NCBI GenBank assembly: GCA_963768835.1
Contig: CAVYJB010000002.1
Span: forward strand, 362,466 to 426,465
Length of the DNA: 64,000 nt
Direction: 5' to 3'
DNA from: an uncultured bacterium
Lineage (GTDB): Bacteria; Patescibacteriota; Minisyncoccia; UBA6257; GWB1-50-10
The stretch's first letter is position 1, and the number at the start of each line of letters is the position of its first letter. The notes under the pieces were generated by a model. It saw only the letters and a program-made list of their open reading frames with translations, was not told where the DNA came from and made no database searches. The translations under genes were made by a program, and so were the position numbers. Of the stretch, positions 2,460-46,114 are shown one piece after another.

Positions 2460-2894
2460 ATGAAAACACTACGCGCGCTTTCGCTCACATTTTTTATCTT
2501 CGGTCTCCTTGGGTGGGTCTACATCGCCGGGAGCGCTGTGCTTCGTCCGGATAATCTCGACGAGCCGCTCACACACTTTCTTCCGTGGTTGCGCGCAGAT
2601 ACCTCCGGCGCCGCCTGCTTTGTCCTCTTCCTCCTCGCATTCTTTGTCTGGAACATTCTGCGTGATGAAAATCGGCGTATGAGGTCTCTGCGCTCATTAT
2701 CTCTGACGTTAGCTGTCCTTGGTTTTTCTGGCTGGGTCTATATCGCCGGGAACGCCATCTCGCACCCCGAAACACTTTCCCTTCCGCTTACGCACTTCTT
2801 GGACTTTCCCCGTGAGGATACCTTTGGTGCCGCCTGCTTTGCAATCTCATTTATCTCATTCTTTGTCTGGAATCTCCTTCGGGAAGAAAAATAA
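2460..2894 (+). CDS. small membrane protein built from an internal tandem duplication
   Basis: Residues 5-72 and 78-144 are two ~67-aa repeats (LSLTFFIFGLLGWVYIAGSAV..THFLPW..GAACF..FFVWNILRDE vs LSLTLAVLGFSGWVYIAGNAI..THFLDF..GAACF..FFVWNLLREE). Each repeat has two TM helices. Confidence 0.5.
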   Translation: MKTLRALSLTFFIFGLLGWVYIAGSAVLRPDNLDEPLTHFLPWLRADTSGAACFVLFLLAFFVWNILRDENRRMRSLRSLSLTLAVLGFSGWVYIAGNAISHPETLSLPLTHFLDFPREDTFGAACFAISFISFFVWNLLREEK

Positions 2895-3312
2895 TACCTT
2901 TTAGCTCCCACCGTCGGCTCATTCGAGTGGAATCCTCGCGTAGCTTGCTCCGTAAGGCGCTGCAATAAAAGGTTTGTGGTGTATGGGACGTAGAGGCCCG
3001 CGATGCGCAGGCCTCGCCATACTGTTGCGTAAGGCCGATCAGTTCGTGGTAACATTACGGTTTGTCCATGAACATATCCAATGTTGGTTCTTTTGGTCGG
3101 TTCGCTCTAGAGAGTCCCGGGGGATCCCGAATGATTTTCTTAATTAATATGCCTAGCGGTTCCAGGCGCATGCGGCGCTACACAGTGCATACGACACCGT
3201 GGAATTCTTTCGGTATAGTTATATAAAATGAAGCACGAAGCGTGTAGCAGGCAGCACTTGAAGCAAGAATGATGGGCTATATGTTACGTGGTGCACGATA
3301 TGGGTAGGTGCA

Positions 3313-5976
3313 ATGAAAAAGAAACACATTATCATCGTTAGCGTCGTCGCTGTGCTTCTCTTCGGCATGGTGGGGTTTCTGCGGACCGACTCCTCGGCGC
3401 GGAACACCCTTCGCGGCCTCGGGATGCTCCGGAGCAGGGGACTCGCGCAGCTCCTGGACCTTATCTCAGGCACCTCTACGTCTCCGGTTGAAACTACTTC
3501 GAATCCGCCCGAGAGCACCAGCACCTCCCCGACGCCGCCGCCACTGCCTACTGTCACGCTCCAGGCCGTCTCGACCACTATCACCGCCTCGAGCTCCACC
3601 CTGCTCCAGTGGTCCTCCACGGACGCGGATGCCTGTACGGCCTCGGGCGGGTGGAGCGGACCTGAAGCCACCTCGGGTACCGCGACGAGCTGGGCTCTCG
3701 CGACTGACACCCTTTTCTCCCTCGCCTGCACGAACGTGACGGGGAGCGCAACCTCCTCCGTCACGGTGGCCGTGGTTCCGCCGCCTGACACCACTCCGCC
3801 TACCGTCTTCTTCACAAGTCCCGTGGACGGGGCCAGCGTCTCCGGGACCGTCACGGTTGCCGCGAACGCCTCCGATAACGTGGGAGTGGCAGGAGTGCGG
3901 TTTACCCTGGACGCCGTGCCGCTCGGACCCGAGATTATCGCGACGACCTATGCGATGCAATGGGACACGGCGTCCACGACGAATGGTTCTCACACACTCG
4001 AAGCGATTGCGCGCGACGCGGCGGCGAACACGGCCTCTGCCACACTCACGGTGGCGGTCCTGAACGCTATCCCAAATACTTCAGTAGTTGTTCCGCCAAC
4101 CCTCGCAACACCCCCCTTCGGCATATCCTTTGCCGATTCTCTGCCTGGCCTTTCGGCGAACGCGCTTGGAGACCAACTCAATGCCGAGGTCGCGCTAGGG
4201 GCAAGGTGGGCGCGCATCGACATGGCCTGGAGCGACGTCCAGCCGATCTCGAGTACGACTTTCAACTGGGTAGATCTTGACCGGGTTGTGGCCGTAGCAC
4301 GGGCACGCAACATCCAGCTACTTCCCATGCTCGGCTACACACCCGCATGGGCGCGCCCCGCAGGGTGCACGGTTGAGACCTGCGCTCCCGCCAGCCCGAA
4401 TGCCTTCGCGGTTTTCGTGAAAGCGGCTGTTGCCCGCTACGCGCCCCAGGGCATCTTCGCGTGGGAGATCTGGAACGAGCCGAACATCACGGGTTTCTGG
4501 CAGCCCGCGCCGAGCCCGACGAACTACGTCGCGCTTCTCAAGGCGGCCTATGCCGCCATCAAGGCGCAGGAGCCCGCCTCCATCGTGATTTCGGGCGGTA
4601 TGGCGCCCGCGGCGACCGCAGGCTCGGATTTTTCGCCTATCGATTTCCTTACGCAGATATATCAGCAGGGCGCGGAACCGTACTTCGACGCCGTAGGGTT
4701 CCATCCGTACTCCTATCCCGCGATGCCGTCCTATGCAGTTTCATGGAACGCTTGGACGCAGATGTCGGCTACCACGCCGACGAGCCTCCGCAGCATCATG
4801 ATGGCGAACGGGGATTCTGGGAAAAACATTTGGATGACCGAGTACGGCGCGCCGACGGGAGGGCCCGGGGCGCTTGAATCCTCCGCCACAGACACACAGT
4901 TCACCGGGGCTCCCGATCACGTCACGGAAGCGCTCCAGGCGCAGATACTCTCAAGCGCCGTTGCGCTCGCGAGCGGATATTCTTGGGCGGGTCCGCTATT
5001 CTGGTACAGCTATCAGGATTTAGGGACTTCAAACACCACCAACGAGAACTTCTTTGGTATTCTCCGCTTTGATGGAAGTCAGAAGCCTGCATACGCCGCG
5101 ATGAAGCAGGCCTTCACGGGCACCGGCGGGGGAACAAGCGGAGGAACGACGACGAGTACTAGCACGAGCACTCCCTCGGGTGGAGGTGGAACTTCCACGA
5201 GCACGGCAACTTCGACACCTCCCAAGCTCGGTGGGAGTCAAACCTCAACATCCACGAGCACCTCCACGCTTCCTAAGGTGGGCGGGGGACAAACCTCAAC
5301 ATCTACAACGACCTCGACACTCTCACAGACGGCTACCAGCACCACAACCTCAACTCCGTTAACAGTTTCGGCCGTGCCGACCATCCTCGCATCCGGGGGC
5401 GGAGGAGGTGGAGGCGGAGGTGGAGGCGGCGGAGGAGGAGGCGGTATTCCTCTTATCCCGGCATCCACACCTCCAAATTCGGCTCTCAGCCCCAGTACGG
5501 CTGTTACGCTCCCTGCCACAGCGAACACGGGAACTTCAAACGCACCCGGAGGCGGTGGAGAAGGTGGTATTCCCGCACTCGCGGCCGGCGCTGTACTCGC
5601 CCCCGGCATACGCAGCACCAGCGTAGCAACCCTCCAGACCATGCTCACAGAGGATCCTACCTTGCTCCCCAAACGTTTCATCACAGGGTACTACGGAGCG
5701 GCGACGACTTGGGCTGTGGCACAGTTCCAGACGCGCTATGCGGTCCCGCTTTCTGCCGCGACCGGCGATTCCTCAGGCGTCGTGGGCAGCGTCACGCTTA
5801 TGAAACTAGATGAAGTCTTCGCACCGGAGACCTCAACCACGCCGACGTCCCCGTCCGCACCCCCAGCGGCCACCCTCCCCCCCGAGGTTCGAAGCGCGAT
5901 TACCACTAAGATTAATCTCCTTCTTCAGCTCGTGAACCTGCTCTACGCGCAGTTGCGACTCCTTACGGGCCACTGA
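3313..5976 (+). CDS. secreted multidomain hydrolase: signal peptide, Ig-like domain, GH5-like catalytic domain, Thr/Ser/poly-Gly linker, peptidoglycan-binding domain
   Basis: N-terminal signal/TM helix. Big/Ig-like segment (VTVAANASDNVGVAGVRFTLD). Catalytic core WEIWNEPN / TEYGAPTGGPG paralogous to 268..1599. TSTSTS and G17 low-complexity linker. C-terminal PG_binding_1-like motif (YYGAATTWAVAQFQTRY). Confidence 0.7.
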   Translation: MKKKHIIIVSVVAVLLFGMVGFLRTDSSARNTLRGLGMLRSRGLAQLLDLISGTSTSPVETTSNPPESTSTSPTPPPLPTVTLQAVSTTITASSSTLLQWSSTDADACTASGGWSGPEATSGTATSWALATDTLFSLACTNVTGSATSSVTVAVVPPPDTTPPTVFFTSPVDGASVSGTVTVAANASDNVGVAGVRFTLDAVPLGPEIIATTYAMQWDTASTTNGSHTLEAIARDAAANTASATLTVAVLNAIPNTSVVVPPTLATPPFGISFADSLPGLSANALGDQLNAEVALGARWARIDMAWSDVQPISSTTFNWVDLDRVVAVARARNIQLLPMLGYTPAWARPAGCTVETCAPASPNAFAVFVKAAVARYAPQGIFAWEIWNEPNITGFWQPAPSPTNYVALLKAAYAAIKAQEPASIVISGGMAPAATAGSDFSPIDFLTQIYQQGAEPYFDAVGFHPYSYPAMPSYAVSWNAWTQMSATTPTSLRSIMMANGDSGKNIWMTEYGAPTGGPGALESSATDTQFTGAPDHVTEALQAQILSSAVALASGYSWAGPLFWYSYQDLGTSNTTNENFFGILRFDGSQKPAYAAMKQAFTGTGGGTSGGTTTSTSTSTPSGGGGTSTSTATSTPPKLGGSQTSTSTSTSTLPKVGGGQTSTSTTTSTLSQTATSTTTSTPLTVSAVPTILASGGGGGGGGGGGGGGGGGIPLIPASTPPNSALSPSTAVTLPATANTGTSNAPGGGGEGGIPALAAGAVLAPGIRSTSVATLQTMLTEDPTLLPKRFITGYYGAATTWAVAQFQTRYAVPLSAATGDSSGVVGSVTLMKLDEVFAPETSTTPTSPSAPPAATLPPEVRSAITTKINLLLQLVNLLYAQLRLLTGH
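5395..5448 (+). repeat. (GGN)n simple-sequence tract encoding G17
   Basis: ggcggaggaggtggaggcggaggtggaggcggcggaggaggaggcggt inside 3313..5976. Confidence 0.85.
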
Positions 5977-10311: not shown

Positions 10312-12087
10312 ATGAACCCAATGCCCCCGGGAACCCTCGCTTGCAAGAACTGCAAGCAATCCTTCGCGATTGAACAGGACGACCTCAGTTTCTACGAGAA
10401 GATGCAGGTCCCTGCTCCGACGTTTTGCCCCTCTTGCAGACGGCAGCGGAGGTTTTTATGGAGGAATGAACGGTCGCTCTATAAGCGGCAGAGCGATTTC
10501 TCAGGGAAGGAAATCATTTGCCTGTACTCTAAGGAGAAACCGTTCAAGGTTTACGACCAGAAGGAATGGTGGGGCGACGAGTGGAGCGCTATCACGTATG
10601 GCAGGGCGTACAATTTTTCTAAACCATTTTTCACACAATTTTACGAACTCCAGCGAGAGGTTCCCCGGCTTTCCATTTTCAATCAGCAGTGCACGAATGC
10701 CGACTACACCAACCAGTCGTACGAGAACAAAGACTGCTATCTTTGTTTCAGTGTTGCGAAGTCAGAGGAGAGCGCTTACTGCGCCAATATCAACGAGGTA
10801 AAGCAGACGCTCGATTCCCTTTACCTCACAAAATCCGAGCTCGTATACGAGGGAATCGATTCAGAGCAGTGCTACAACTCCACGTTCCTCATCAATTCAG
10901 ACAACTGCATCAATTGTGCATTCCTGTTTGACTGTAAGAATTGTACGGATTGTATAGGAGGGGTTGGTCTACGGAATAAGCAACACGTCTTTTGGGGGGA
11001 GCAGCTCACGAAGGAGGCTTACGAACGAGAGAAGAACACTTTCGATCTGGGGAGCCGCCTGAAGCAGCAGGAAGCGAAAAAGAGGTTTGCGGACCTTATT
11101 CTCGGCTTCCCGCGTGTCTCGGAGCGATTCAAGAAATGCAGTTCCTGTACGGGGGATCTGCTTACGAACTGCAAGAATGTGAAGGAAGGATTCGGCGCAT
11201 TCGACCTCGAGGACTGCCGCTACAGCGCTCGAATCTACAGCTGCAAGGACACGCATGACAGCTATGGGTTGGGTGAAAGCCAATTGGCATATGAGACCAT
11301 CGGGAATCAAACCATCTACAACGTCGCTTTCTCGAACATTACGAGCGACTCCCGGAACTGCCGCTACTCAGACCTTTGCTTCAACTGCGAGGACTGCTTT
11401 GGCTGCGTGGGCTTGCGAAAGAAACAGTACTGCATTTTAAACAAACAGTACTCCCAGGAGGATTATGAAGCGCTCATCCCTAAAATCGTTGAGCATATGG
11501 CTACGATGCCGTTCGTTGATACGCAGGGACATGCGTATGTCTACGGTGAGTTTTTCCCTCCGGAATTTTCCCCCTTCGCATATAACGAGACCATTGCACA
11601 GGAGTATTTCCCACTAGGAAAAGAGAAAGCCGCCCAGCAAAAGTACGTGTGGAAAGACTCCGAGGTGAGGGATTACAAGATTACCAAGAGGCCCGGGGAA
11701 CTTCCAGATCACATCAAAGATGTCGGCGACGAAATACTCAACGATGTCATCGGATGCGAACATGATGGTAACTGCAAGGAGCAGTGCGCTACAGCGTTCC
11801 GGCTGACCAAGGAAGAATTGGCGTTCTATCGGCGGATGAACATTCCGCTCCCTCGGTTGTGCTCAAATTGCCGACACTATGAACGCTTAGGGAAGAGGAA
11901 TCCTTTGATGGTGTGGGGTCGCGCTTGCCAGTGCGTTGGGATGAAGTCCGAGAATGGCGTCTACCAGAATACCGTCACCCACCAGCACGGGGCAGGGAAG
12001 TGTCCCAACAAGTTCGAGACTTCTTATGCGCCGGACCGCAAGGAGATCGTCTACTGCGAGCAGTGCTACAACGCGGAGGTCGTATAG
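10312..12087 (+). CDS. Cys-rich repeat protein, paralog A (zinc-ribbon-like N- and C-terminal motifs)
   Basis: N-terminus CKNCKQSFAIEQDDLSFYEKMQVPAPTFCPSCRRQRRFLWRNERSLYKR. The C-terminus repeats the motif (AFRLTKEELAFYRRMNIPLPRLCSNCRHYERL). Internal C.[DN]C.GCVGLR repeats. Homologous along its length to 44453..46114. Confidence 0.6.
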   Translation: MNPMPPGTLACKNCKQSFAIEQDDLSFYEKMQVPAPTFCPSCRRQRRFLWRNERSLYKRQSDFSGKEIICLYSKEKPFKVYDQKEWWGDEWSAITYGRAYNFSKPFFTQFYELQREVPRLSIFNQQCTNADYTNQSYENKDCYLCFSVAKSEESAYCANINEVKQTLDSLYLTKSELVYEGIDSEQCYNSTFLINSDNCINCAFLFDCKNCTDCIGGVGLRNKQHVFWGEQLTKEAYEREKNTFDLGSRLKQQEAKKRFADLILGFPRVSERFKKCSSCTGDLLTNCKNVKEGFGAFDLEDCRYSARIYSCKDTHDSYGLGESQLAYETIGNQTIYNVAFSNITSDSRNCRYSDLCFNCEDCFGCVGLRKKQYCILNKQYSQEDYEALIPKIVEHMATMPFVDTQGHAYVYGEFFPPEFSPFAYNETIAQEYFPLGKEKAAQQKYVWKDSEVRDYKITKRPGELPDHIKDVGDEILNDVIGCEHDGNCKEQCATAFRLTKEELAFYRRMNIPLPRLCSNCRHYERLGKRNPLMVWGRACQCVGMKSENGVYQNTVTHQHGAGKCPNKFETSYAPDRKEIVYCEQCYNAEVV

Positions 12088-13499: not shown

Positions 13500-13940
13500 A
13501 TGGACACAGTTTCAGACCCGAATTCGGCTCCTCAGGCTCCCGTACCGCCCGCAATCCTCGTCAAAAAGAAAATCTGTCCCCAGTGCCATCAGCCGGTGCT
13601 CCCGGAGTACTATTTCTGCCCCAACTGCGGCAAGAACCTCGAGGAGAAGCCTTTATCCACGACGGTGGGGGCCCAGATATGGCTTTATACCTTCAGCCTC
13701 ATCCTGATGCCCATGACCTGTTATCTCATCTACAGCAAATGGCAGGGATGGAAATATTTTAAGTCGGACGATCCCAAGGCCAAAGACATAGGGCTGATAT
13801 CCATCATTCTTCTTGGCGTCTCGTTTCTCCTGCTCATCTGGATCACATGGGCGGGGATCGCAGCGCTCCAGAAGTATTGGCTGACGGAGGAATCCAGCAT
13901 CAATACCATGGGCCTCGGTGGATTGGGAAGCGGGTTGTAA
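13500..13940 (+). CDS. zinc-ribbon membrane protein
   Basis: N-terminal CPQCHQ..(16)..CPNCGKNL zinc ribbon followed by 2-3 TM helices. Confidence 0.5.
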   Translation: MDTVSDPNSAPQAPVPPAILVKKKICPQCHQPVLPEYYFCPNCGKNLEEKPLSTTVGAQIWLYTFSLILMPMTCYLIYSKWQGWKYFKSDDPKAKDIGLISIILLGVSFLLLIWITWAGIAALQKYWLTEESSINTMGLGGLGSGL

Positions 13941-24164: not shown

Positions 24165-25283
24165 ATGAAAAGCCTATCCTACACGCTGCTGTTTCTGGTG
24201 ATCGTTGCCCTCCTTCTGCCCGCCACCTCGAACGCTGCCGCTCCGTGGAACCTCGTGAACAGCCTGAGTCTTTCGAGCTGGTCCTCCGGATATTCCAACA
24301 CGGCGGTTTCGGGCCAGTCGTACGACTTTGTCATCACGACCGCGGCGAGCACCGGGACGCGCTTCGGGATTTTCTCTCGGGCGTATACCGCAACGAATCT
24401 GCCGCAGACCAACATGGTGGTCGCAATCGAGCTCAATGCGCCCAGCACCCAAAACGTCCGGGTCTCGATTAGCCTGTACTACCAGGGCAATCCGCAGGTG
24501 AACTCCGCCCTGGTGTATGTCGTAGGGGGCACGAGTTTCGCCGATTACACCTTCCTGTTCCCGGTCTACGCGGGTCAATTCGACGAGATGCGCTTCAACT
24601 TTTCGTATCTCGACGGAGAAACCGGCACCCGGGAAATCCTGGTGGACAACATCCGGATCGACGGGACGCTGCTGGACAACTGCGACAATCCGCTGCCCAT
24701 CCAGCTTGCGACCTTCCAGGTCGCCTCGGTGGTGGGAAGCGACGTAACGCTGTACTGGAAGACGCTGTCGGAGACCAACAACTACGGGTTCGACGTGGAA
24801 CGGAGTTCCGACGGAAAGAACTTCCAGAAGCTCAGCTTCATCGCCGGGCACGGGACCACGCTCGCGACGCATGAGTACTCCTATGAGGACAAGAGCGTTG
24901 CGGTCGGAACCTGGTACTATCGCCTGAAGCAAACGGATCTCGACGGTTCGGCGACGTACTCGGAAGTGCAGGTCGCGAAGGTCGAGGGTGTCGCGACGGT
25001 CGCGGCGCCTGAAGTGCCGACGGTGTACTCCTTGCGGCAGAACTATCCGAATCCCTTCAACCCGGCGACAAAGATCGAGTACGCGCTACCGGCAGCCGGT
25101 CGCGTGACGCTCAAGGTCTACGACGCGCTGGGGCGGGAAGTCGTGACACTCGTGGAGGGGATGCAGACCGCAGGATCGCATACGGCGACATTCGACGCCA
25201 CAAGCCTTCCGAGCGGAACTTACTTCTATCGCATCGGCGCGGGTACGTTCACGGCGACCCACAAGATGCTGCTTCTGAAGTAG
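24165..25283 (+). CDS. secreted protein with a T9SS-type C-terminal sorting domain
   Basis: Signal peptide. C-terminus YSLRQNYPNPFNPATKIEYALPAAGRVTLKVYDALGREVVTLVEG..GTYFYRIGAGTFTATHKMLLLK matches the Por-secretion-tail consensus. Confidence 0.65.
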   Translation: MKSLSYTLLFLVIVALLLPATSNAAAPWNLVNSLSLSSWSSGYSNTAVSGQSYDFVITTAASTGTRFGIFSRAYTATNLPQTNMVVAIELNAPSTQNVRVSISLYYQGNPQVNSALVYVVGGTSFADYTFLFPVYAGQFDEMRFNFSYLDGETGTREILVDNIRIDGTLLDNCDNPLPIQLATFQVASVVGSDVTLYWKTLSETNNYGFDVERSSDGKNFQKLSFIAGHGTTLATHEYSYEDKSVAVGTWYYRLKQTDLDGSATYSEVQVAKVEGVATVAAPEVPTVYSLRQNYPNPFNPATKIEYALPAAGRVTLKVYDALGREVVTLVEGMQTAGSHTATFDATSLPSGTYFYRIGAGTFTATHKMLLLK

Positions 25284-25430: not shown

Positions 25431-28400
25431 ATGAATACGTTCGGAAAGTTCGCAACGGTGGCGGTTGTAGGGTCGCTCCTCGTGCTTGAGGCCGTCGTGC
25501 CCGCCGGCACCGCGCTCGCGTGGCAGGGTCCGACCCTCACCGCGACGCCCAGCGTCACCTCGGTCACCGTTTCGTGGACGACCGCGGCGGACACGTCGGA
25601 GCACTCCGTCCATTACTCGACATTGCAGATCGACGGAACGAATTTCAATTCCGCGACGAACGCGCCCGGCGTTCCGGCGCCGCTTCCGAACCAGGCGCAG
25701 AGCGTCACGGTCAACGGACTCATCTCGAACACCACCTACTACTTTGCATACTGGTCCACCTCCACGGTAGGCGAGGCGAAGTTCTCGACGGCGTCTGCGA
25801 AAACCCTCACGCCGCCGCCTCCGGCGGCTCCGAACCCGGTTTCGAACCTCACCGCGACCGCGAGCGGCACGACCTGCATCGCACTCGCCTGGGACACGCC
25901 CTCCGGAGGCTCCCTTTCCCAGTTTTATCTTAGCTATTCCACGTCCGCGATCACGGGTTCCAACTTTGCATCCGCGACGCCCGCGACGGGTCTTCCGCTC
26001 CCGATCTCCGGGACGCACCAGACCTTCACGCAGTGCGGGCTTTCCGCCGGTACGACCTATTACTTCGGTCTCACGGTGGCGAACACGGTAGGTACCCAGT
26101 CGTCTCTCGTGACTTCTTCGGCGGCCACCCAGTCGGGCGGCGGAGGCGGCGGTGGTGGAGGCGGCGGCGGAGGCCTCCTGCCTCCGGTTGCGGTTACGAG
26201 CCTTACGGCCTCGAGCTCCATCAATTCCGTGGATCTTTCCTGGAAGACTCCTTCGAGCGACAACCTTTCACAGACGAGCGTGTGGTACTCCCTTTCTCCG
26301 ATCACGTCCGGGAACGTCGCGGGCGCGACCGCCGTCACGGGCGTCCCGCTCCCGCGGAAGGGAGAGATCCAGACGGTGCATGTCCCGGGCCTCACCGCGG
26401 GCACGCTGTATTACTTCGCGGTGCAGGAGGTGGATATCGTGGGGCAGACTTCTCCTCTCGCGACCGTTTCCGCGACGACGCTCACGGGCGCGAACCTTTC
26501 GAGCGTCCCTCCGGTCACAAATCTTCTCGCCTCGAGCTCGGTGAACTTTATCAATCTCTCCTGGCTCACCCCGCAGGATGACAATCTCTCGCAGTTCAAT
26601 GTTCGGTACTCGACCTCGAGCATCACCGACGCGAACTTCGCGCAGGCGGCGGTCGCCGCAAACCCTCCGCTCCCGCGGAAGGGCCAGGGGCAGGGAATGC
26701 AGGTCTCGGGCCTGCAGGCGTCCACGCTCTACTTCTTTGCGGTCCAGGTACAGAACATCGTCGGCGCGACCTCGCCGTTGGCGACCGTCTCGACCACAAC
26801 CCTCGCGTCGGGGGGCGGTGGCGGCGGTGGGGGAGGTGGGGGTGGCGGGCTTCTTCCGCCCGGTCCCGCGACGAACCTTGCCATCACAAGCTATGTGGAC
26901 GGCGTGGATCTTTCCTGGCTCACTCCGCAGAACGACAACCTCTCGCAGTTTTCCATCCGTTACTCGACTTCAAGCATCACGGCGGGGAACTTCGCGCAGG
27001 CCGCGGTAGCTCCGAACCCTCCGCTCCCGCGGAAGGGTGAAACCCAGATGCTCCACATTGGGGGGCTCCAGAGTGGCACGACGTATTACTTCGCGATCCA
27101 GATCCAGGACATCGTGGGACAGACCTCGCCGTTGGCGACGATCTCCGGCACGACGCTTTTGAATCTCATCGGCACGCCGCCCGTGACGAATTTCACCGCG
27201 ACGCCCGATGGTACAAACGGCACGACCTGCATCGATCTCGCCTGGGACACCCCGCAGGGGCTGCTCCTCTCGGAGTTCCATCTGCGCTATTCCACGGACG
27301 CCATTACAGATGACGTGAGCTTTACCTCGGGGACTCTGGCGACCGGCGTACCGCTCCCGCGGCACGGCGAGCACCAGACTTTCACGCAGTGCGGGCTTTC
27401 GGCAGGCACCAATTATTCCTTCGGTATTAAGATCGCGAACGTTGTGGGCGTTGAATCGCCCCTCGTGACCGCATCCGCGGCCACCACGTCGGGTGGTGGA
27501 GGCGGTGGCGGCGGGGGAGGTGGAGGCGGCGGTGGAGGCGGAAGTGTCGGTGGGGGCGTCGTGACGGTCGGTGGCGGCGGTGGAGGTGGGGGCGGCGTCT
27601 CCGTGGGCCCCTCCGTGCCGACGAACGGCTCTATCCGCATCAACGGCGGTGCCGCGATCACGTACACGCGCGCTGTGACCCTCACGCTCACCGCGACGGG
27701 GGCGACACAGATGGCTATCTCGAACTCGCCGGTTTTCACGAACACCGTGTGGCTGCCGTTCGCGACGACCATGCCATGGACGCTCACGGACGGTTACGGC
27801 TCGAAGTCGGTCTACGCCCAATTCCGCAATGCGTCAGGGATCGCCTCTCCGGTTGTCGCGGGCATCCTCTATGCGCCGTATCCGGCGACGATCGGAACGG
27901 GAGGCGGCGTCGGGCGCGCCTATGACATCCAAGACGTCAACACGGCAATGGTGAACTGGGGCAAGAGCGGGACGGTCTCTGACCTGAACGGCGATGGCAC
28001 GGTGAACGTGCGGGATATCGCAGTGATGTACGCTGACTGGGCACAGAACCCTCGGCCCATCACGTCGGCGCCGACTCTCGCAACCTTCGTTTCTCCGACC
28101 CCTGGGAACGCGAACGTTCTGCCCGGTGACGAGCTCTCGGTGAACGTAGTGGCGGATCCGAAGGGAAGCCGCGATTACACCGCCGAGGTGGCGCTTCAGT
28201 ATCCGACGGATCTCCTTGAGTTTGAAACCTTCGATTTCCACGGCGGGTGGGTGCCGGTGGTGCGCCCCGAGTTCGACCAGGATAATCGGACGGACGGGAT
28301 CATTCTGAAAACCGGGGCCTACCCGGGTGGGTTCACGCGACCCGTAGCCGTCGGTACCGCCATCTTCCGTGTGAAGCAGCAGGGTGCCGGGACCGTCCGC

Positions 28401-28676
28401 GTGGCGAACGACTACTTCGTTCTGAACGCTTCGAACCAGAATGTTCTTGCACAGGGGTCCAATATGGCACCGCTCGTGGTCTTCGGGACCGTCTCACCCG
28501 CAGGGACCTTCACCGCAAACCTGCTTTCCATCTTCGGTTCGAGTAACTGGGGCGCAGGGCTTGAGGCACTTATTCTCTTCCTCATCCTCTACATCGTTTC
28601 CCGCATTCTTCAGGACCATTACCGGAAGCGCGAGGAACGGCGCACCGCCGCGCTCCAGCCGAAGCTGAGCATCTAA
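25431..28676 (+). CDS. giant surface protein: 5-6 Fn3-like repeats separated by poly-Gly linkers, dockerin-like module, cohesin-like module, C-terminal TM anchor
   Basis: Repeats of ~100 aa (LT..S..VDLSW.TP..DNLSQ..VRYSTS.IT..NFA.A..V...PLPRKG..Q...GL...TYYFA.Q..IVG..SPLATVS.TTL). Dockerin-like DLNGDGTVNVRDIAVMYADW. Cohesin-like block ..NVVADPKGSRDYTAEVALQYPTDLLEF... C-terminal hydrophobic helix plus a basic tail. Confidence 0.65.
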   Translation: MNTFGKFATVAVVGSLLVLEAVVPAGTALAWQGPTLTATPSVTSVTVSWTTAADTSEHSVHYSTLQIDGTNFNSATNAPGVPAPLPNQAQSVTVNGLISNTTYYFAYWSTSTVGEAKFSTASAKTLTPPPPAAPNPVSNLTATASGTTCIALAWDTPSGGSLSQFYLSYSTSAITGSNFASATPATGLPLPISGTHQTFTQCGLSAGTTYYFGLTVANTVGTQSSLVTSSAATQSGGGGGGGGGGGGGLLPPVAVTSLTASSSINSVDLSWKTPSSDNLSQTSVWYSLSPITSGNVAGATAVTGVPLPRKGEIQTVHVPGLTAGTLYYFAVQEVDIVGQTSPLATVSATTLTGANLSSVPPVTNLLASSSVNFINLSWLTPQDDNLSQFNVRYSTSSITDANFAQAAVAANPPLPRKGQGQGMQVSGLQASTLYFFAVQVQNIVGATSPLATVSTTTLASGGGGGGGGGGGGGLLPPGPATNLAITSYVDGVDLSWLTPQNDNLSQFSIRYSTSSITAGNFAQAAVAPNPPLPRKGETQMLHIGGLQSGTTYYFAIQIQDIVGQTSPLATISGTTLLNLIGTPPVTNFTATPDGTNGTTCIDLAWDTPQGLLLSEFHLRYSTDAITDDVSFTSGTLATGVPLPRHGEHQTFTQCGLSAGTNYSFGIKIANVVGVESPLVTASAATTSGGGGGGGGGGGGGGGGGSVGGGVVTVGGGGGGGGGVSVGPSVPTNGSIRINGGAAITYTRAVTLTLTATGATQMAISNSPVFTNTVWLPFATTMPWTLTDGYGSKSVYAQFRNASGIASPVVAGILYAPYPATIGTGGGVGRAYDIQDVNTAMVNWGKSGTVSDLNGDGTVNVRDIAVMYADWAQNPRPITSAPTLATFVSPTPGNANVLPGDELSVNVVADPKGSRDYTAEVALQYPTDLLEFETFDFHGGWVPVVRPEFDQDNRTDGIILKTGAYPGGFTRPVAVGTAIFRVKQQGAGTVRVANDYFVLNASNQNVLAQGSNMAPLVVFGTVSPAGTFTANLLSIFGSSNWGAGLEALILFLILYIVSRILQDHYRKREERRTAALQPKLSI
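26135..26172 (+). repeat. (GGN)n tract encoding poly-Gly linker 1 of the 1081-aa protein
   Basis: Seen directly. Confidence 0.85.
26810..26852 (+). repeat. (GGN)n tract encoding poly-Gly linker 2
   Basis: Seen directly. Confidence 0.85.
27494..27600 (+). repeat. long (GGN)n tract encoding poly-Gly linker 3 (G18, SVGGGVVTVG, G9)
   Basis: Seen directly. Confidence 0.85.
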
Positions 28677-37148: not shown

Positions 37149-37173
37149 CGATATTTCGATCAGATGAGAACCG

Positions 37174-37215
37174 AGGACCTCGTGCCATGCGCACCTGGTC
37201 CTTTTTATTTTTCCA
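37174..37215 (+). terminator. intrinsic terminator
   Basis: aggacc..gtgccatgcgcac..ggtcct ttttatttttcc. Confidence 0.55.
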
Positions 37216-37256
37216 CAGCTACCCCGCGCTTGCCGGATTCAGATACGCGGGGTACA

Positions 37257-38543: not shown

Positions 38544-38550
38544 CTTTCCC

Positions 38551-39450
38551 ATGAAACACTTCTTCAACGTCATCGGGTATCGGAATTACTTCCTCGGTTT
38601 TTCGGGGACCCTCGTCCTCGCGAGCATCGTGCTCATCATCGTGCTGGGGCTCCGGCCGGGCATCGATCTTACGGGTGGCACCGAGATCCAGGTGCGCATC
38701 GATTCCACAACCGTGGATGAGACCGCAATCGCCGCGGCGCTCCGCCCCGTGCAGGGGCTCGCGGTCGGCGTGACGAAGCAGGGGGACGGCACATTCCTGA
38801 TCCAGCTTCCGCACGTGACCGAGGATGAGCACCAGGCGTATCTCACGGCTCTCAAGCCCCTCGGGACCGTGGACGAGGTGAACTATTCCTCGATCGGCCC
38901 CACGGTGGGGACCGAGCTCCGCACGAAGGCGTTCTGGGCCATCGGCACTGTGCTCGTCGCCATCTCTCTTTACATCGCGTTCGCGTTCCGGAAAGTTTCC
39001 GTGCCGGTGAAGTCCTGGAAGTACGGTGTGGTGACACTCCTCACGCTTTTCCACGACGTTTCCATTCCGGCGGGGCTCATCGCCATCCTCGGGGCATGGA
39101 AGGGGATTCAGGTGGACACCAACTTCATCGTGGCGCTGCTCGTGGTGATGGGGTTCTCGGTCCACGACACTATCGTGGTGTTCGACCGCATCCGGGAGCA
39201 CCTTCTTCGGGGAAACCGTCGGCTGCCCTTGGACCAGGTGGTCAATGACAGCGTGAACGAGACCTTTGCCCGCTCCATCAATACCTCCCTCACCCTTTTC
39301 CTGGTGCTTCTCGCGCTGCTGTTGGTAGGCCCGGGGAGCCTGTTCTACTTCATCCTGACCATGCTCGTGGGGACCATCTTCGGGACCTATTCCTCCATCT
39401 TCGTGGCAAGCCCTCTCCTGTACCTGTGGGGGCGGGAAAAGCCCCGCTAG
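38551..39450 (+). CDS. secF: protein translocase subunit SecF
   Basis: GIDLTGGTEIQ motif. 6-TM C-terminal block (SVHDTIVVFDRIRE). Confidence 0.8.
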   Translation: MKHFFNVIGYRNYFLGFSGTLVLASIVLIIVLGLRPGIDLTGGTEIQVRIDSTTVDETAIAAALRPVQGLAVGVTKQGDGTFLIQLPHVTEDEHQAYLTALKPLGTVDEVNYSSIGPTVGTELRTKAFWAIGTVLVAISLYIAFAFRKVSVPVKSWKYGVVTLLTLFHDVSIPAGLIAILGAWKGIQVDTNFIVALLVVMGFSVHDTIVVFDRIREHLLRGNRRLPLDQVVNDSVNETFARSINTSLTLFLVLLALLLVGPGSLFYFILTMLVGTIFGTYSSIFVASPLLYLWGREKPR

Positions 39451-39492
39451 GGGCTTGGCGGGGGAAGGGGTAGGGGGTCTGTGGACAAGGGC

Positions 39493-39528: not shown

Positions 39529-39529
39529 C

Positions 39530-40549
39530 ATGGTAAAGAATCTAGACGCCTTCATCGAACACCTTTTCGAGGGTTTCTCCCCGAAGCAGCGGAAAGTCGT
39601 TACGTCCCGGTTCGGCCTGCGGACGGGGCATCGGGCGCCTCTCCAGGAGATCGGGGATGAGCTCGGTATCACGCGGGAGCGGGTCCGCCAGATCGAGGAA
39701 CAGAGCTTGAAGAAGCTCCGGAGCCGCATCCGCGAGGAGGCCGGTGATTTCCTCGAGGTGGTGGCTAAATATCTCGACACGATGGGAGGGATCCGTCGCG
39801 ACGAGACCTTCCTCATGGAGGTCCGGAAGAAATTCCCCGGCTTCGAGAAAGTGAAGCACGCGGATCAGAAGCTCCGGTTCCTGTTCCTCGCGGCCGAGAC
39901 GCCGTTCCACCACAAGGACACGGATGACGTCTACAGTTTTTGGTACACGAGTGACATCTCGAAGAAGCGTCTATTCGATTTCCTGAAGCAGATGCTCCAA
40001 GTGTTCCGCACCGCCAACAAGCAGGAGTTCTTGGAGAAGCGCGCGTACCTCGCGTACGCGAAGGACTTCGCCTCCTCGAACTTCCTTTCGGTCTCAAAGC
40101 ACATCGGCGTGAATATGTTCGGGGACATGGGACTCCGAGTCTGGCCCGAGATCGAGCCGAAGACCATTCGTGACAAGGCGTACCTCGTGCTCCGGAAGCA
40201 CGGGAAGCCCCTCCACTTCGAGGATGTTGCGAAGTACATCGCGCGGTACGGCATTGATCGCGAGGCCGCACACGTGCAGACGGTGCACAACGAACTTATC
40301 AAAGACCCTCGCTTCGTGCTGGTGGGCCGCGGTCTCTACGCGCTCCGCGAGCACGGCTATGAGCCGGGGACGGTGCGCGAGGTGATTGCGCGGCTTCTGA
40401 AGAAGGAAGGCCCAATGGGTGCGGATGAAGTGGTAAAGGAGGTCAACAAGCAGCGCATCCTGAAGCAGAACACCATTCTTCTTAGCCTTCAGAATCGCAA
40501 GTACTTCAAGCGCCTAGATGACGGGCGCTACCACGTCCGGGAAGCGTAG
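39530..40549 (+). CDS. DNA-binding protein with an N-terminal sigma-70 region-4-like HTH
   Basis: LQEIGDELGITRERVRQIEEQSLKKLR is a region-4-type HTH. No region 2 is present. Confidence 0.5.
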   Translation: MVKNLDAFIEHLFEGFSPKQRKVVTSRFGLRTGHRAPLQEIGDELGITRERVRQIEEQSLKKLRSRIREEAGDFLEVVAKYLDTMGGIRRDETFLMEVRKKFPGFEKVKHADQKLRFLFLAAETPFHHKDTDDVYSFWYTSDISKKRLFDFLKQMLQVFRTANKQEFLEKRAYLAYAKDFASSNFLSVSKHIGVNMFGDMGLRVWPEIEPKTIRDKAYLVLRKHGKPLHFEDVAKYIARYGIDREAAHVQTVHNELIKDPRFVLVGRGLYALREHGYEPGTVREVIARLLKKEGPMGADEVVKEVNKQRILKQNTILLSLQNRKYFKRLDDGRYHVREA

Positions 40550-40550
40550 G

Positions 40551-41960: not shown

Positions 41961-41962
41961 CC

Positions 41963-42478
41963 ATGGATACCACGAGCACACTTGCGCTCAGCGACACCCT
42001 GCGGGGGCTCTTCGTAACCTTCCGCGCCATTTTCCTGGTCCTGGATATCGGGCTCTTGGCAACTTTCTGCGCGGTTTTTTACCGCGCGCTTGAGACGCGT
42101 CCTCGCTTCGTGTCTCCGAAAGCGAAGGTGCGTGCGAGGCCGAAGGTGGACAACAAAAAGATTCGGGATGAGTGGCACGCGCTTCTCGAGAAGGCGGACC
42201 TGAAGCCCCCAGAATCTTACGTTCTTGCGATTATCGAGGCGGACAAATTCGTAGATGGTCTTTTGAAGCAGCTGGGATTCCAGGGCGAGCACATGGCGGA
42301 CCGCCTCGAGCGCATCGGCGAGATCAATCCCAACCTCAGCACGCTCGATCGCGTGTGGCAGGCCCACCGCATCCGGAACGAGCTCGTGCACACACCCGAC
42401 TTCGAGGTCTCGCACACCGACGCGCACGAGGTCCTCAAGTCCTACGAGGCATTCCTTCGGGAGGCCGAGCTTCTGTAG
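41963..42478 (+). CDS. small membrane-anchored hypothetical protein
   Basis: N-terminal TM helix. Starts 3 nt after the upstream stop. Confidence 0.4.
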   Translation: MDTTSTLALSDTLRGLFVTFRAIFLVLDIGLLATFCAVFYRALETRPRFVSPKAKVRARPKVDNKKIRDEWHALLEKADLKPPESYVLAIIEADKFVDGLLKQLGFQGEHMADRLERIGEINPNLSTLDRVWQAHRIRNELVHTPDFEVSHTDAHEVLKSYEAFLREAELL

Positions 42479-42580: not shown

Positions 42581-44041
42581 ATGCCAGAATCCGGGAAGAT
42601 TCAGATTATTAAGTACGCGCCGCCGCCGCCGGAGCTCCCGGTCCTGGGGCGCGTGGACCCGGCGGAGGTCTCCTTCTTCGGGCGGACGAACTATGTCGCG
42701 GCGCTTGAGGAGAAGCGTTTCATCTTCGGCATGAAGCGCGTCGACCGCCGCCGCCACCTCTATATCATCGGGAAAAGCGGGGTGGGGAAGTCCAAGCTTC
42801 TCGAGCTCCTGATGCGCCAGGATATCGCCTATGGCCACGGCCTCTGTCTCATGGACCCGCACGGCGACGACATCGACGCCATCCTCGATTTCATCCCGGA
42901 GAACCGCATTGACGACGTGTGTCTCATCGACCCCTCCGACGCGGGGTATCCCATCTCTTTCAACCCGCTCGCGAACGTGGACCCCACGTTCAAGCACCAG
43001 CTGACCCAGGGGCTCATCGAGGTGATGGAGAAGCAGTTCGGCGCGAACTGGACGCCGCGGCTCGAGCACGTCTTCCGCTTCACCTGCCTCGCGCTCCTCG
43101 ACTACCCGCACGCCACCATGCGCGGGATGATTTCCATGCTCACGGACCGCAACTACCGGCAGAAGGTGGTCGAGTACATCGAGGACGACATGGTGAAGCG
43201 CTTCTGGGCGATTGAGTTCGCGGACTGGTCCGAGAAGTTCGACACGGACGCCATCATTCCTCTTGTGAACAAACTGGGGCAGTTCCTCTCGAACCCCATG
43301 CTCCGGAACATCTTCGGCCAGAAGGAGAACAAGGTGGACCTCAGGGACCTGATGGCCAAAAAGAAGATTCTTCTCATCAACCTGTCGAAAGGGAAGCTGG
43401 GGGAGGAAAACTCGAGCTTCTTCGGCTCGATGTTCATCACGAAGATCAAGCAAGCGGGGATGGAGCGTGCCTCGCTCCCGGAGGCGCAGCGGAACGATTT
43501 CTATCTCTACGTCGACGAGTTCCATAACCTCGTGACCGAAACGTTCGAGAACCTCCTCTCCGAGGCCCGGAAGTACGGTCTCTGCCTCACAATGGGGCAT
43601 CAGTACATGGGCCAGCTTATCCCTTCGGTCCAGGCGGCGGTCCTAGGGAACGTAGGATCCATCGTCATTTTCCGCGTGGGAGGGGAGGATGCGCGGTTCC
43701 TCGAGGCCGAGATGACCCCGATTTTCAAAGCGAAGGACATGATTAACCTGGGGATGCAGGAGTTTTATATCAAGATGACCATCAACGGCGAGACCCAGGA
43801 TCCCTTCTCGGCAGCTACCCTCAAGGTTTTGCCGCCGGGGTATCCATCGAACCGCGACCGCATCATCGAAGCTTCGCGTCAGAAGTACTCCATCTCGGCG
43901 GATGCGGCGAAGAAACTTATCGCAGAGGAAGAGGCGGGCATCTTCCGGAGCGCGCAGGAGAAGGCCGCCATCACGGGCGGGCGGTCGTCAGAGGGGGGTG
44001 CGGCAAAACCGGAGGACAAGAACCCCGAACCGCTCATCTGA
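42581..44041 (+). CDS. P-loop NTPase, VirD4/TraG (type IV coupling protein)-like or HerA/FtsK-like
   Basis: Walker A YIIGKSGVGKSKL followed by LMDPHGD. Walker B LYVDEFHNL. Arg-finger-like GHQYMGQ region. Confidence 0.55.
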   Translation: MPESGKIQIIKYAPPPPELPVLGRVDPAEVSFFGRTNYVAALEEKRFIFGMKRVDRRRHLYIIGKSGVGKSKLLELLMRQDIAYGHGLCLMDPHGDDIDAILDFIPENRIDDVCLIDPSDAGYPISFNPLANVDPTFKHQLTQGLIEVMEKQFGANWTPRLEHVFRFTCLALLDYPHATMRGMISMLTDRNYRQKVVEYIEDDMVKRFWAIEFADWSEKFDTDAIIPLVNKLGQFLSNPMLRNIFGQKENKVDLRDLMAKKKILLINLSKGKLGEENSSFFGSMFITKIKQAGMERASLPEAQRNDFYLYVDEFHNLVTETFENLLSEARKYGLCLTMGHQYMGQLIPSVQAAVLGNVGSIVIFRVGGEDARFLEAEMTPIFKAKDMINLGMQEFYIKMTINGETQDPFSAATLKVLPPGYPSNRDRIIEASRQKYSISADAAKKLIAEEEAGIFRSAQEKAAITGGRSSEGGAAKPEDKNPEPLI

Positions 44042-44084: not shown

Positions 44085-44390
44085 ATGGTCTTTGTTTATA
44101 CGACGTGCGGGAAGGAGGAGGAGGGGCGAAACCTGAGCAAGCTTGTCATCGGGAAGAAACTAGCTGCGTGCGTGCACATGTGGCCTATTGAATCGTGCTA
44201 CACCTGGGAAGGTACGATGAAGTGCGAGAAGGAATTCGTGGTCCAGCTCACGACTCTGGAGTCGAAACTGCAGCCGATTGAAGATCTCATTCTTTCGAAC
44301 CACACCTACTCGACACCCTTTGTGGGGGCCGTCGACATTCGTCGCATCAACCGCGAGTACAAGGAGTGGATGGCGCAGGTGATCGAGTAA
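44085..44390 (+). CDS. cutA: divalent-cation tolerance protein CutA
   Basis: VFVYTTCGKEEEG..LVIGKKLAACVHMWPIESCYTWEGTMKCEKEFVVQLTT...HTYSTPF matches the CutA1 family. Start coordinate is +-1-2 nt. Confidence 0.65.
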   Translation: MVFVYTTCGKEEEGRNLSKLVIGKKLAACVHMWPIESCYTWEGTMKCEKEFVVQLTTLESKLQPIEDLILSNHTYSTPFVGAVDIRRINREYKEWMAQVIE

Positions 44391-44452: not shown

Positions 44453-46114
44453 ATGGCTGATTCTAAAACAACGATTTGTCAGAACTGTAAGCGGAACTTC
44501 GCCATCGAACCGGACGATTTTTCATTCTACGAGAAAATACAGGTGCCGCCGCCGACGTTCTGCTGGCTCTGCCGCGCCCAGCGGCGTTTGGCGTGGCGTA
44601 ATGAGCGCGCGCTTTATAAACGGAAGAGTAACGCAACCGGGAGAGAGATCTTTTCAGCATTTCCTCCGGAGGCGCCCCACACGGTCTACGAGAACGATAT
44701 CTGGTACTCGGATCAATGGGATGGTATCACCTATGGTCGTGATTATGATTTTTCGAGGCCGTTCTTTGAGCAATTCAATGATTTGCACATTCAAGTCCCA
44801 CAGTTTGCACTCTCAGTCGTTTCCCCGGTGAATAGTGACTACGGGAACAACCTGACTGACGCCAAAAACTGCTACCTTATTTTTAATTGCACTCATATGG
44901 AAGATTGCCTGTATGGGAATGGCACCGTTATGTCGAAAGAGTGCATTGATTTTTCCCATCTTTCCAAGTGTGAACTCTGTTACGAAAGTTTCTGGCTTAC
45001 GCGTTGCCAGCGGACATTCTTCTCGGATTGTTGCGAGGACTGTACAGACGTCTGGTTCTCGCGGGACCTTCGCAACTGCTCGAACTGTTTTGGGTGTGTG
45101 GGACTTCGGAATGCTTCCTATCAATGGTTCAACGAGGGTTTGCAAAAAGATGAGTACGGGCGGCGGTTTCGCGCGTTCCACTCCGGATCATACGCAGAGG
45201 TTGAAAGGCACCGCGCTCAAGCGCTTGATCGGTGGAGTCGCTTCCCGGTGAAGTACATCGAGGGGGCGAAAAATACGGATGTGAGCGGAAACTACATATT
45301 CAATTCGAAGAATGTTAAAAATTCTTTCCTGGTGCGGGAGGGGGAGAATATTAAATTCTCTCAATATCTGCAAGTTCCGCCCAACAAGGATTGCTATGAC
45401 CACAGCACATGGGGCGATGGTAATGAGCTGACGTATGAGGTGTGTCAGGCTGGGTTGGGGACCTACAACATTCGGTTCTGCGTTCTGACGTATCCGAACG
45501 TGAAGAATCTTGAATACTGCATTATGTGCCAATCCTCCTCCGATCTTTTTGGCTGTGTAGGATTACGGAAAAAGCAGTATTGCGTCCTGAACAAACAGTA
45601 TCCCAAAGAGGAGTACGAAGCGCTGGTGTCGAAAATTCGACAACATATGATGGAGGTGCCGTATACCGATCGGAAGGGTAGGGTGTATCGCTACGGCGAG
45701 TTTTTTCCCGTTGAGCAGTCGCCCTATCCCTATAACGAAACTCCAGCCCAGGATTATTTCACGCTCACGAAGGAGCAGGCGCTTGAGGTGGGGTTTGCGT
45801 GGCGCGACCAGCCAACCCGGGAGCGTATCCCGACAGAGACCGAGGCTACGCTTCCTGACGATATTGGCGAGGTTTCAGACGATATTCTGAGTGAAATTGT
45901 TGAATGTGCGCACCGTGGCAAATGCAATGACAACTGTACCGGTGCATTTCGTATTGTACCTGCCGAGCTCGCATTTCATCGGCGAATGAGGGTACCGCTC
46001 CCGCGGCTTTGCCCGAATTGTAGAACGCGCAGCCGACTCGGTGGGGGGACGCGGAAGGAAAAACTTAAGAATAAGGCCCCGCGAAAGCGGGGCCCGTGCT
46101 ATACTCAGAAGTGA
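44453..46114 (+). CDS. Cys-rich repeat protein, paralog B
   Basis: N-terminus CQNCKRNFAIEPDDFSFYEKIQVPPPTFCWLCRAQRRLAWRNERALYKR. C-terminal FRIVPAELAFHRRMRVPLPRLCPNCRTRSRL. Internal CSNCFGCVGLRNAS and CIMCQSSSDLFGCVGLRKKQYCVLNKQY repeats. Homolog of 10312..12087. Confidence 0.6.
   Translation: MADSKTTICQNCKRNFAIEPDDFSFYEKIQVPPPTFCWLCRAQRRLAWRNERALYKRKSNATGREIFSAFPPEAPHTVYENDIWYSDQWDGITYGRDYDFSRPFFEQFNDLHIQVPQFALSVVSPVNSDYGNNLTDAKNCYLIFNCTHMEDCLYGNGTVMSKECIDFSHLSKCELCYESFWLTRCQRTFFSDCCEDCTDVWFSRDLRNCSNCFGCVGLRNASYQWFNEGLQKDEYGRRFRAFHSGSYAEVERHRAQALDRWSRFPVKYIEGAKNTDVSGNYIFNSKNVKNSFLVREGENIKFSQYLQVPPNKDCYDHSTWGDGNELTYEVCQAGLGTYNIRFCVLTYPNVKNLEYCIMCQSSSDLFGCVGLRKKQYCVLNKQYPKEEYEALVSKIRQHMMEVPYTDRKGRVYRYGEFFPVEQSPYPYNETPAQDYFTLTKEQALEVGFAWRDQPTRERIPTETEATLPDDIGEVSDDILSEIVECAHRGKCNDNCTGAFRIVPAELAFHRRMRVPLPRLCPNCRTRSRLGGGTRKEKLKNKAPRKRGPCYTQK

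Follow-up and report, generated by a model that had tools for sequence, protein, structure and literature searches.

An undescribed multi-paralogue protein family of Parcubacteria with paired zinc-finger ends and a predicted duplicated β-solenoid core

What kind of family do two large, Cys-rich proteins encoded within 64,000 nucleotides of contig CAVYJB010000002.1 (assembly GCA_963768835.1, an uncultured bacterium) represent, and what might such proteins do? Throughout, this whole 64-kb stretch of DNA is called the window, and the two proteins are called p1 and p2 (Table 1). The descriptive part of the answer can be given with high confidence. p1 and p2 belong to an ancient family with many paralogues that has not been described before and occurs in Parcubacteria (class Paceibacteria, in the Patescibacteria or Candidate Phyla Radiation (CPR)). 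Their terminal domains belong to two curated, functionally uncharacterised zinc-finger families, and the remaining ~400 residues, like the architecture as a whole and the gene neighbourhood, match no curated family, solved structure or paper that we found. No description of the family turned up in the literature searched. What is new is the protein family and its gene neighbourhood; the individual sequences had been deposited before, as hypothetical proteins.

An initial annotation, made from the sequence alone, had described p1 and p2 as paralogues that are homologous end to end. They are indeed true paralogues, with 42% identity over 525 amino acids (aa; BLASTP, E = 1e-147). Of the 543 columns that the two share in the family alignment, 224 are identical, and 18 of these 224 are Cys; identity outside Cys is 39%. 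The similarity is therefore not restricted to Cys spacing, the possibility that the initial annotation had itself named as fatal to its proposal. Homology does not quite run from end to end, as p2 lacks the last ~60 aa, which form the final zinc ribbon of p1. The earlier count of two copies was correct, a third being absent from the 64-kb window. p1 is a single copy at its locus, without conserved neighbours. It has an alternative start at Met4 (position 10321), and this is the start used in the public annotation, which gives a 588-aa product.

Each protein contains two internal duplications, one of a terminal zinc module and one of a central module of ~112 aa that is predicted to form a β-solenoid, as found by profile–profile comparison with HHalign (p1 numbering is used for residues). 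The N-terminal zinc module (aa 12–86) matched the C-terminal one (aa 490–586) with a probability of 98.5% and an E-value of 1.5e-15 over 75 columns. The two were also paired by BLASTP (E = 2e-6), which bears out the earlier observation that the N-terminal motif has a second copy at the C-terminus. The match between the two solenoid modules (aa 133–244 and aa 281–392) was stronger, with a probability of 99.9% and an E-value of 2.3e-35 over 112 columns. The GCVGLR(N/K) motifs, previously reported as several repeats, number two per protein, each closing one copy of the duplicated 112-aa module. Homology between the N-terminal linker (aa 80–135) and the conserved middle block (aa 395–485) was ruled out (HHalign probability 0.1%), so the protein is not a simple two-fold repeat.

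The terminal module is composed of a zf_Tbcl treble clef (PF13451) followed by a CxxC-x17-CxxC ribbon (PF23477, zf_Tbcl_2), which the C-terminal module has in intact form and the N-terminal module in degenerate form. Proteins bearing PF23477 are named 'CxxC-x17-CxxC domain-containing' by NCBI. The ligands of the N-terminal finger of p1, C11, C14, C39 and C42, are invariant across 82 relatives. PF13451 (cut-off 24 bits) scored a marginal 24.1 bits on a fragment of p1 comprising aa 1–120, and was below the cut-off on whole p1 (19.4 bits) and p2 (15.0 bits); 38 of the 82 relatives matched it, with a best E-value of 8.4e-6. For PF23477 (cut-off 27) the score of p1 was 14.2 bits, because an insertion of ~20 aa with two conserved His residues splits the ribbon; relatives reached 24.4 (P0192) and 32.8 bits. 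A search with the 44-aa ribbon as the query, which is very short, gave a single match.

The C-terminal ribbon is kept in 156 of 160 full-length relatives. Among these 160, p2 alone stops before the ribbon region, two have a ribbon that is altered or poor in Cys, and one extends past the edge of its locus. After its second zinc finger, p2 has a unique Lys/Arg-rich tail, GGGTRKEKLKNKAPRKRGPCYTQK (window 46046–46114), predicted to be disordered (aa 532–553). Together with the 399-aa gene that adjoins it, this tail suggests that the 3' end was replaced in a lineage-specific manner. At a pI of about 9.2 the zinc modules are basic; the remaining protein is acidic. Small archaeal proteins of M. mazei with a CxxC-x17-CxxC motif bind zinc, as determined by inductively coupled plasma mass spectrometry (PMC12704099). 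By analogy, we infer that p1 and p2 would also bind zinc, with structural Zn at about 3–4 sites.

Conservation, measured as column entropy, peaks in the zinc modules, in the solenoid caps (CxNCxNCFGCVxLRNK and CILNKQYxKEEYE) and in the YGEFFP...YNET block, and is lowest in the solenoid coils. The CILNKQY...EEYE block, already singled out in the initial annotation, is among the most conserved stretches of the family. Residues G412, F415, P416 and Y424 of the YGEFFP block of p1 are invariant, and the block (YGEFFPxExSPFAYNETxAQEYFPL) is a candidate partner-binding or active surface.

The AlphaFold2 models of p1 and p2 were confident and gave one rigid architecture for both. They had predicted local distance difference test (pLDDT) scores of 86.8 and 84.1, and predicted template modelling scores of 0.86 and 0.87, respectively; the pLDDT of the p2 tail was below 50. 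The order of elements is the same in both models: zinc finger, small α/β linker, solenoid A, helical hairpin, solenoid B, helix, conserved mixed region, zinc finger and ribbon (in p2, a disordered basic tail). The core is thus modelled as two duplicated β-solenoid modules, which show a periodicity of 3, 6 and 18 residues and can be laid out as 18-residue rows of three hexads. p1 and p2 are soluble proteins, and probably cytoplasmic, since the zinc finger begins within the first ~10 residues and the sequences have no signal peptide or membrane segment.

Foldseek returned no significant fold match (E ≤ 1e-3) for either model in the PDB or BFVD. Its weak top matches were mostly left-handed β-helix (LbH) proteins and, for the ends, small phage 'zinc-ribbon domain' proteins. 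Searches of PDB sequences, with the single sequence and with a profile, gave only noise (bL27m, E = 0.12; RdRp, E = 2), as did NCBIfam, and the PADLOC defence models had no match to p1 or p2. The initial annotation had placed the architecture outside named families, and this stands: Pfam, NCBIfam, PADLOC, PDB sequences and the two Foldseek libraries match the terminal zinc fingers at most. The Cys-rich β-helix of the insect antifreeze type (PF02420) was considered and rejected, as hmmscan found it in none of 82 members and the register here is 18 residues, not 12; one precomputed 'weak' match to PF02420 lies on one paralogue of another genome.

Could the solenoids be enzymes? The proteins would then be acyl- or acetyltransferase-like members of the LbH (hexapeptide-repeat) class with zinc-finger appendages, each paralogue with a substrate of its own. 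The top Foldseek matches of both models are almost all LbH proteins (LpxD, LpxA, GlmU, γ-carbonic anhydrase and PglD), the hexad layout is of this kind, one distant relative carries a fused GNAT-like acetyltransferase domain (identified by eye), and ancient, individually conserved paralogues would suit substrate-specific enzymes. However, all of the LbH matches had E ≥ 0.01, TM-scores of 0.07–0.2 and a root-mean-square deviation above 8 Å (for the best, E = 0.01, TM-score 0.10–0.13 and 18 Å), and the Pfam hexapeptide model was matched by 0 of 82 members at E ≤ 0.1. Moreover, the coils are the least conserved part of the protein and lack a conserved catalytic His or Asp. We consider an enzymatic role of this type very unlikely.

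Cys makes up 5–6% of p1 and p2, at 30–36 residues per protein, and the initial annotation had spoken of a metal-binding family. This fits the caps, as the terminal modules match curated zinc-finger models, but it is not the main point of the family, because the Cys residues of the central repeats are poorly conserved, with only 2–3 per module nearly invariant, and because some paralogues lack the zinc-finger Cys. The same data bear on whether the family buffers, stores or chaperones a metal (Zn, Cu or Fe-S). The Cys content, the CxxCxxCxxC runs at the solenoid ends, and a CutA1-like gene that lies between the ATPase gene B (described below) and the family array in 31 of 70 loci anchored on B would all suit such a role. 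Against this, only those 2–3 Cys per solenoid are nearly invariant outside the fingers, solenoid B of most relatives has Ser, Leu or Asn at the Cys positions of p1, and some paralogues have lost the zinc-finger ligands while retaining the rest of the motif. We give this explanation very little credence.

The family is large. It exceeds 7,783 clusters at 90% identity in a word-indexed search, and an exhaustive search of representatives clustered at 50% identity found 3,676 clusters at E ≤ 1e-3 and 1,513 at E ≤ 1e-30. Among the matches listed, all members named by their source are 'hypothetical' except one JGI entry labelled RPC12/RpoP, and 2 of 120 carry a precomputed Pfam domain (PF13451). The named hosts are Giovannoni-, Lipton-, Jorgensen-, Nomura-, Staskawicz-, Sungii-, Kaiser-, Niyogi- and Wolfebacteria, together with RAAC4_OD1_1, all of them Parcubacteria lineages. 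The proposal that the family is lineage-specific is therefore upheld, in that each confidently named host is of the Parcubacteria/Paceibacteria lineage. Many titles reading 'uncultured Candidatus Saccharibacteria' are generic labels from one assembly series, and the single 'Gammaproteobacteria' and 'Woesearchaeota' records, on contigs of 2–4 kb, are probably mis-binned.

Several variants were seen. P0160 (444 aa) is a short form with a single solenoid. P0255 (731 aa) has an N-terminal GNAT-like acetyltransferase domain, recognised by eye, and has lost the Cys ligands in both zinc fingers. In an array member at 2563–4230 of locus L007 the C-terminal finger and ribbon are nearly Cys-free (one Cys), and the motif is otherwise retained.

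The initial annotation also suggested that the family had expanded. Tandem copies, 2 to 7 within ±6 kb and on one strand, were found in 43 of 82 loci, and two loci on contig JALLOO010000001.1 together hold about 14 copies in 27 kb. The expansion is, however, ancient rather than recent. Pairwise identity inside the JALLOO010000001.1 array is 36–57%; for 115 of 124 proteins the best match lies in another genome, and the median best identity is 57% in other genomes compared to 45% within the same genome. Since most best matches lie elsewhere, the family is a set of old, separately maintained subfamilies.

This age bears on a further explanation, in which the family would be a fast-evolving one engaged in conflict, defence or antigenic variation, such as an anti-phage system or a set of variable surface proteins. 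Tandem arrays with variable middles and conserved ends would be expected of it, and the solenoid weakly matched two PHROG families, both without assigned function: of 82 members, 19 matched phrog_15341 and 15 matched phrog_9336. No named PHROG family covered the core. In contrast, the paralogues are old and have orthologues across genomes, PADLOC gave no match, and the proteins have no signal peptide or membrane anchor. No relative was found on mobile elements, either in IMG/VR (a scan seeded by two peptide patterns) or, by tblastn, among INPHARED phages and PLSDB plasmids. An arms-race role is, on these data, exceedingly unlikely.

What, then, accompanies the family? The initial annotation had called for a check of conserved neighbours and had itself pointed to a 399-aa gene downstream of p2 (46114–47313), said to be coupled to it through ATGA. 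The junction is in fact TGATG, with the p2 stop at 46112–46114 and the ATG at 46114–46116, a 1-nt overlap. The 399-aa gene can be discarded as a partner, since no homologue of it was seen near the family members of 82 other loci and it matches nothing in Pfam or the PDB. Promoters and terminators around p2 were not above shuffled expectation. A conserved neighbour does exist, but upstream, where it had been missed. It is 'B', a VirD4-like ATPase of the type IV coupling protein (T4CP) kind.

B scored above the cut-offs of the Pfam models for TrwB/TraG/T4SS-DNA-transfer domains, namely PF10412 (36.3 bits, cut-off 20.5, E = 4e-9), PF12696 (23.5, cut-off 22) and PF02534 (20.8, cut-off 20.1), and far under the equivalog cut-offs of the NCBIfam TraD and CD1115 models. 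A P-loop was found by regular expression in the B orthologues of related loci, the B of the window lying outside that scan. By eye, B has no hydrophobic N-terminal anchor; two separate proteins encoded upstream, A and c5, have hydrophobic stretches. B is 70–85% identical across loci, and 78–85% identical in 80 metagenome loci anchored on B (L083–L162), which is unusually conserved for these bacteria.

When loci were anchored on B, a family gene started within 1.5 kb downstream on the same strand in 29 of 45 loci with enough sequence, and lay within 8 kb in 37 of the 45, usually as an array. When loci were anchored on the family, a T4CP-like gene lay within two genes upstream in 17 of 59 evaluable loci and downstream in 9 of 56. 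We asked whether the gene right after B is one fixed orthologue; this was rejected, as the subfamily in the B-adjacent slot differs between lineages. The adjacency thus persists through turnover of the gene that occupies the slot.

In several loci the family array lies between B, the short form, and a long paralogue of it, B2 (612–804 aa). Eight of ten long paralogues have a CxxC-x17-CxxC ribbon directly after the ATPase domain (PF23477, 48–60 bits), and a low-complexity tail of 100–300 aa, rich in Pro, Lys and Glu, follows this ribbon. Examples of B2 lie at 557–2743 of locus L042, 8169–10583 of L060 and 7935–9773 of L081. PF23477 is therefore common to B2 and to the C-terminal ribbon of the family.

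Upstream, B is part of the block SecD-SecF-sigma/HARE-A-c5-B (window 37164–44041), which is fully syntenic in about 100% of loci; c5 is directly 5' of B in all loci with a long enough upstream flank. Clustering suggests that A is fused to the ATPase in one relative, so that A and B may be a split coupling protein, as judged from sequence; A gave no BLASTP alignment to this putative fused relative at E ≤ 1e-5. The run of genes from SecD to B may encode a split, membrane-anchored machine resembling a coupling protein.

Table 1. Features of p1, p2 and the neighbourhood of p2 (window positions; solenoid assignments are predictions)
Feature	Position	Strand	Basis
p1, family member, 591 aa	10312..12087	+	Open reading frame (ORF); public product 100% identical at 588 aa
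p1 N-terminal zf_Tbcl treble-clef zinc finger (aa 8-47), then Arg-rich helix	10333..10452	+	PF13451; invariant Cys; net charge +4 to +6
p1 degenerate copy of CxxC-x17-CxxC ribbon (aa 56-86), most Cys ligands gone	10477..10569	+	HHalign, aa 12-86 vs aa 490-586
p1 predicted solenoid module A (aa 133-244), ending in CxNCxDCxGGVGLRNK and a helix; variable across the family	10708..11043	+	HHalign A vs B; 3/6/18-residue periodicity; entropy profile
p1 predicted solenoid module B (aa 281-392), ending in CFGCVGLRKKQYCILNKQY..EDYE; coils variable, cap highly conserved	11152..11487	+	HHalign; AlphaFold2 pLDDT 93-98
p1 YGEFFP...YNET block (aa 400-440), most conserved region outside the zinc modules	11509..11631	+	Lowest column entropy
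p1 C-terminal zf_Tbcl copy (aa 482-530), with C482, C488, C492, C517 and C520	11755..11901	+	BLASTP; HHalign; conservation
p1 C-terminal CxxC-x17-CxxC-type ribbon (zf_Tbcl_2) with His-containing insertion (aa 539-588), ending ...VYCEQCYxxEVV	11926..12075	+	PF23477
Sigma-70 region 4 and HARE-HTH protein, 339 aa, heading A-c5-B after SecD-SecF	39530..40549	+	Domain matches
A, membrane protein, 480 aa, two N-terminal hydrophobic helices, no P-loop	40518..41960	+	Clustering
c5, small protein, 171 aa, hydrophobic N-terminal stretch (membrane segment by eye)	41963..42478	+	Directly upstream of B
B, VirD4/TraD/TrwB-like (T4CP-like) soluble P-loop ATPase	42581..44041	+	PF10412, PF12696, PF02534; NCBIfam TraD and CD1115 matches
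CutA1-like gene between B and p2; likely start is Met62 of the ORF at 43902	44085..44390	+	PF03091, E = 9e-26
p2, family member, 553 aa, p1-like architecture minus the terminal ribbon	44453..46114	+	ORF; exact 553-aa product in public annotation

Our favoured explanation, which we hold tentatively, is that the p1/p2 family consists of clients or adaptors of orphan coupling-protein ATPases. The evidence for the link to the ATPases is gene linkage and a shared domain. All paralogues would bind one and the same partner through their conserved ends and cap. The orphan VirD4-like ATPases encoded beside the arrays are the likeliest partner, and one of them, B2, has the CxxC-x17-CxxC ribbon that also closes the family proteins. 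The variable faces of the solenoids would give each of up to ~14 paralogues its own specificity. The family would then be either the client set (cargo or effectors) or the substrate-adaptor set of the VirD4-like ATPases.

The separate parts of this explanation differ in strength. That the zinc ends and the cap dock the paralogues specifically on B or B2 is possible but doubtful. It is decidedly unlikely that the family is a repertoire of cargo, effectors or adaptors recognised through its zf_Tbcl and CxxC-x17-CxxC ends, and that A, c5 and B or B2 form a split T4CP-like motor, anchored in the membrane, which receives or exports these proteins. Patescibacteria carry 5,713 VirD4-like genes in 2,918 genomes, of which 148 are near virB4, and their role is left open by the study that counted them (PMC12102498); it is because of this open role that a docking or adaptor model is favoured.

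Several points weigh against linking the family to the ATPases. B itself belongs to a syntenic block of housekeeping genes that about 100% of loci have, with the family downstream in 64–82% only, so the adjacency could reflect inherited gene order or an insertion hot spot rather than function. No T4CP-like neighbour was present in 63 of 84 family loci, that of p1 included, and no virB4 was identified in the part of the window ORFs that was scanned. The sampled loci are phylogenetically related, which makes the counts non-independent. Folded proteins with several zinc sites are an awkward cargo for type IV secretion. Lastly, docking on the ATPases and the role as client or adaptor are drawn from sequence and gene neighbourhood.

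If the linkage to B were inherited synteny, the proteins might instead work without the ATPases, as factors that bind nucleic acids or serve gene expression, with DNA or RNA clamped by the two basic zinc modules. Both zinc modules are basic and Arg-rich, and the conserved block of B has SecDF and the sigma region 4/HARE-HTH protein and is followed in the window by S11, S4 and RpoA. In addition, PMC12704099 discusses the CxxC-x17-CxxC motif in connection with transcription, and arrays also recur after MreB-MreC-PBP2. On the other hand, B2 carries the ribbon domain and flanks arrays outside the SecDF block, the adjacency to B persists while the adjacent subfamily turns over, and it would be unusual for a genome smaller than 1 Mb to keep a general expression factor as up to about 14 ancient paralogues. 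We judge such a role unlikely.

The second recurrent context of the arrays, after MreB-MreC-(MreD)-PBP2, was seen in L001 and 7 other loci. The window has its own MreB (54564–55574) and PBP2 (61510–63393), with no family gene after PBP2 up to the window end at 64000.

Essentially all credible genes of the window are on the + strand, and a tRNA scan and Rfam gave no tRNA genes or Rfam matches in the whole 64 kb. Three genes downstream of p1, a 146-aa protein (13500–13940) carries a zinc ribbon at its N-terminus (PF13240, E = 3e-6), after which come hydrophobic stretches resembling membrane helices; no relation to the p1/p2 family was detected. A 372-aa protein (24165–25283) ends in a Por_Secre_tail, a type IX secretion sorting domain (E = 4.6e-10), which is unexpected in Patescibacteria. 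Type IX secretion is known mainly from Bacteroidota. The gene beside it (25431–28676) encodes a 1081-aa protein with fibronectin type III and purple-acid-phosphatase N-terminal domains. Two GH39/GH5-like glycoside hydrolase candidates lie at 268–1599 and 3313–5976. The larger (887 aa) combines a bacterial Ig domain with a weak match to a peptidoglycan-binding domain, and is possibly an enzyme directed at a host cell wall.

What does the family mean for these bacteria? Some CPR genomes, of about 0.5–1 Mb, spend about 25 kb (roughly 3%) on it, and the paralogues, being old and individually conserved, speak for a range of separate functions that have been maintained and against junk DNA or the churn of an arms race. 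The link to orphan VirD4-like ATPases and the domain shared with them are new in the literature searched. The family would make the question of the VirD4-like ATPases, as raised in PMC12102498, concretely testable by binding and translocation experiments. If the reading as cargo or adaptors is true, these proteins would provide the repurposed type IV machinery thought to underlie the episymbiotic lifestyle with its first candidate substrates. At the least, they present a new domain architecture and, going by the models, probably a new solenoid variant, and deserve a family entry.

How does the family compare with known systems? Its terminal modules have the same Cys spacing as PF13451 and PF23477, and the same signatures, F.I...D..FY.K..VP.P..CP.CR and C..C.K......P......VYC..C. 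The known members of these two zinc-finger families are small stand-alone proteins or short tails of others, with no assigned function. In contrast, the family described here pairs both domains and duplicates them at both ends, where they account for ~170 of 591 residues, and its N-terminal ribbon and some of its paralogues lack the ligands. The predicted core resembles left-handed β-helix proteins such as LpxA, LpxD, GlmU and γ-carbonic anhydrase in being a β-solenoid with a 6/18-residue register. It differs from them in that the matches are non-significant (E ≥ 0.01, TM ≤ 0.2), in having no Hexapep match and a Cys-rich interior, and in consisting of two separate modules of about 6 coils joined by helices.

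For the proposed partnership, the nearest parallel in logic is found in Xanthomonas, where the effectors of a proven type IV secretion system bear toxin domains and a conserved C-terminal domain that interacts with VirD4 (XVIPCD). The two are unrelated in sequence, and the present family, known from sequence, has no toxin domain or adjacent virB4 machinery. What they would share is a set of varied or paralogous proteins with a conserved module that a nearby VirD4-type coupling ATPase would recognise. The ATPases have a counterpart closer to hand, in the orphan VirD4-like T4CP homologues of Patescibacteria (PMC12102498). The passages searched in that study make no mention of the family, of the CxxC-x17-CxxC tail of B2 or of the split A/c5/B arrangement; but B and B2, at about two per genome and not next to virB4, plausibly belong to the same class as the homologues that it describes.

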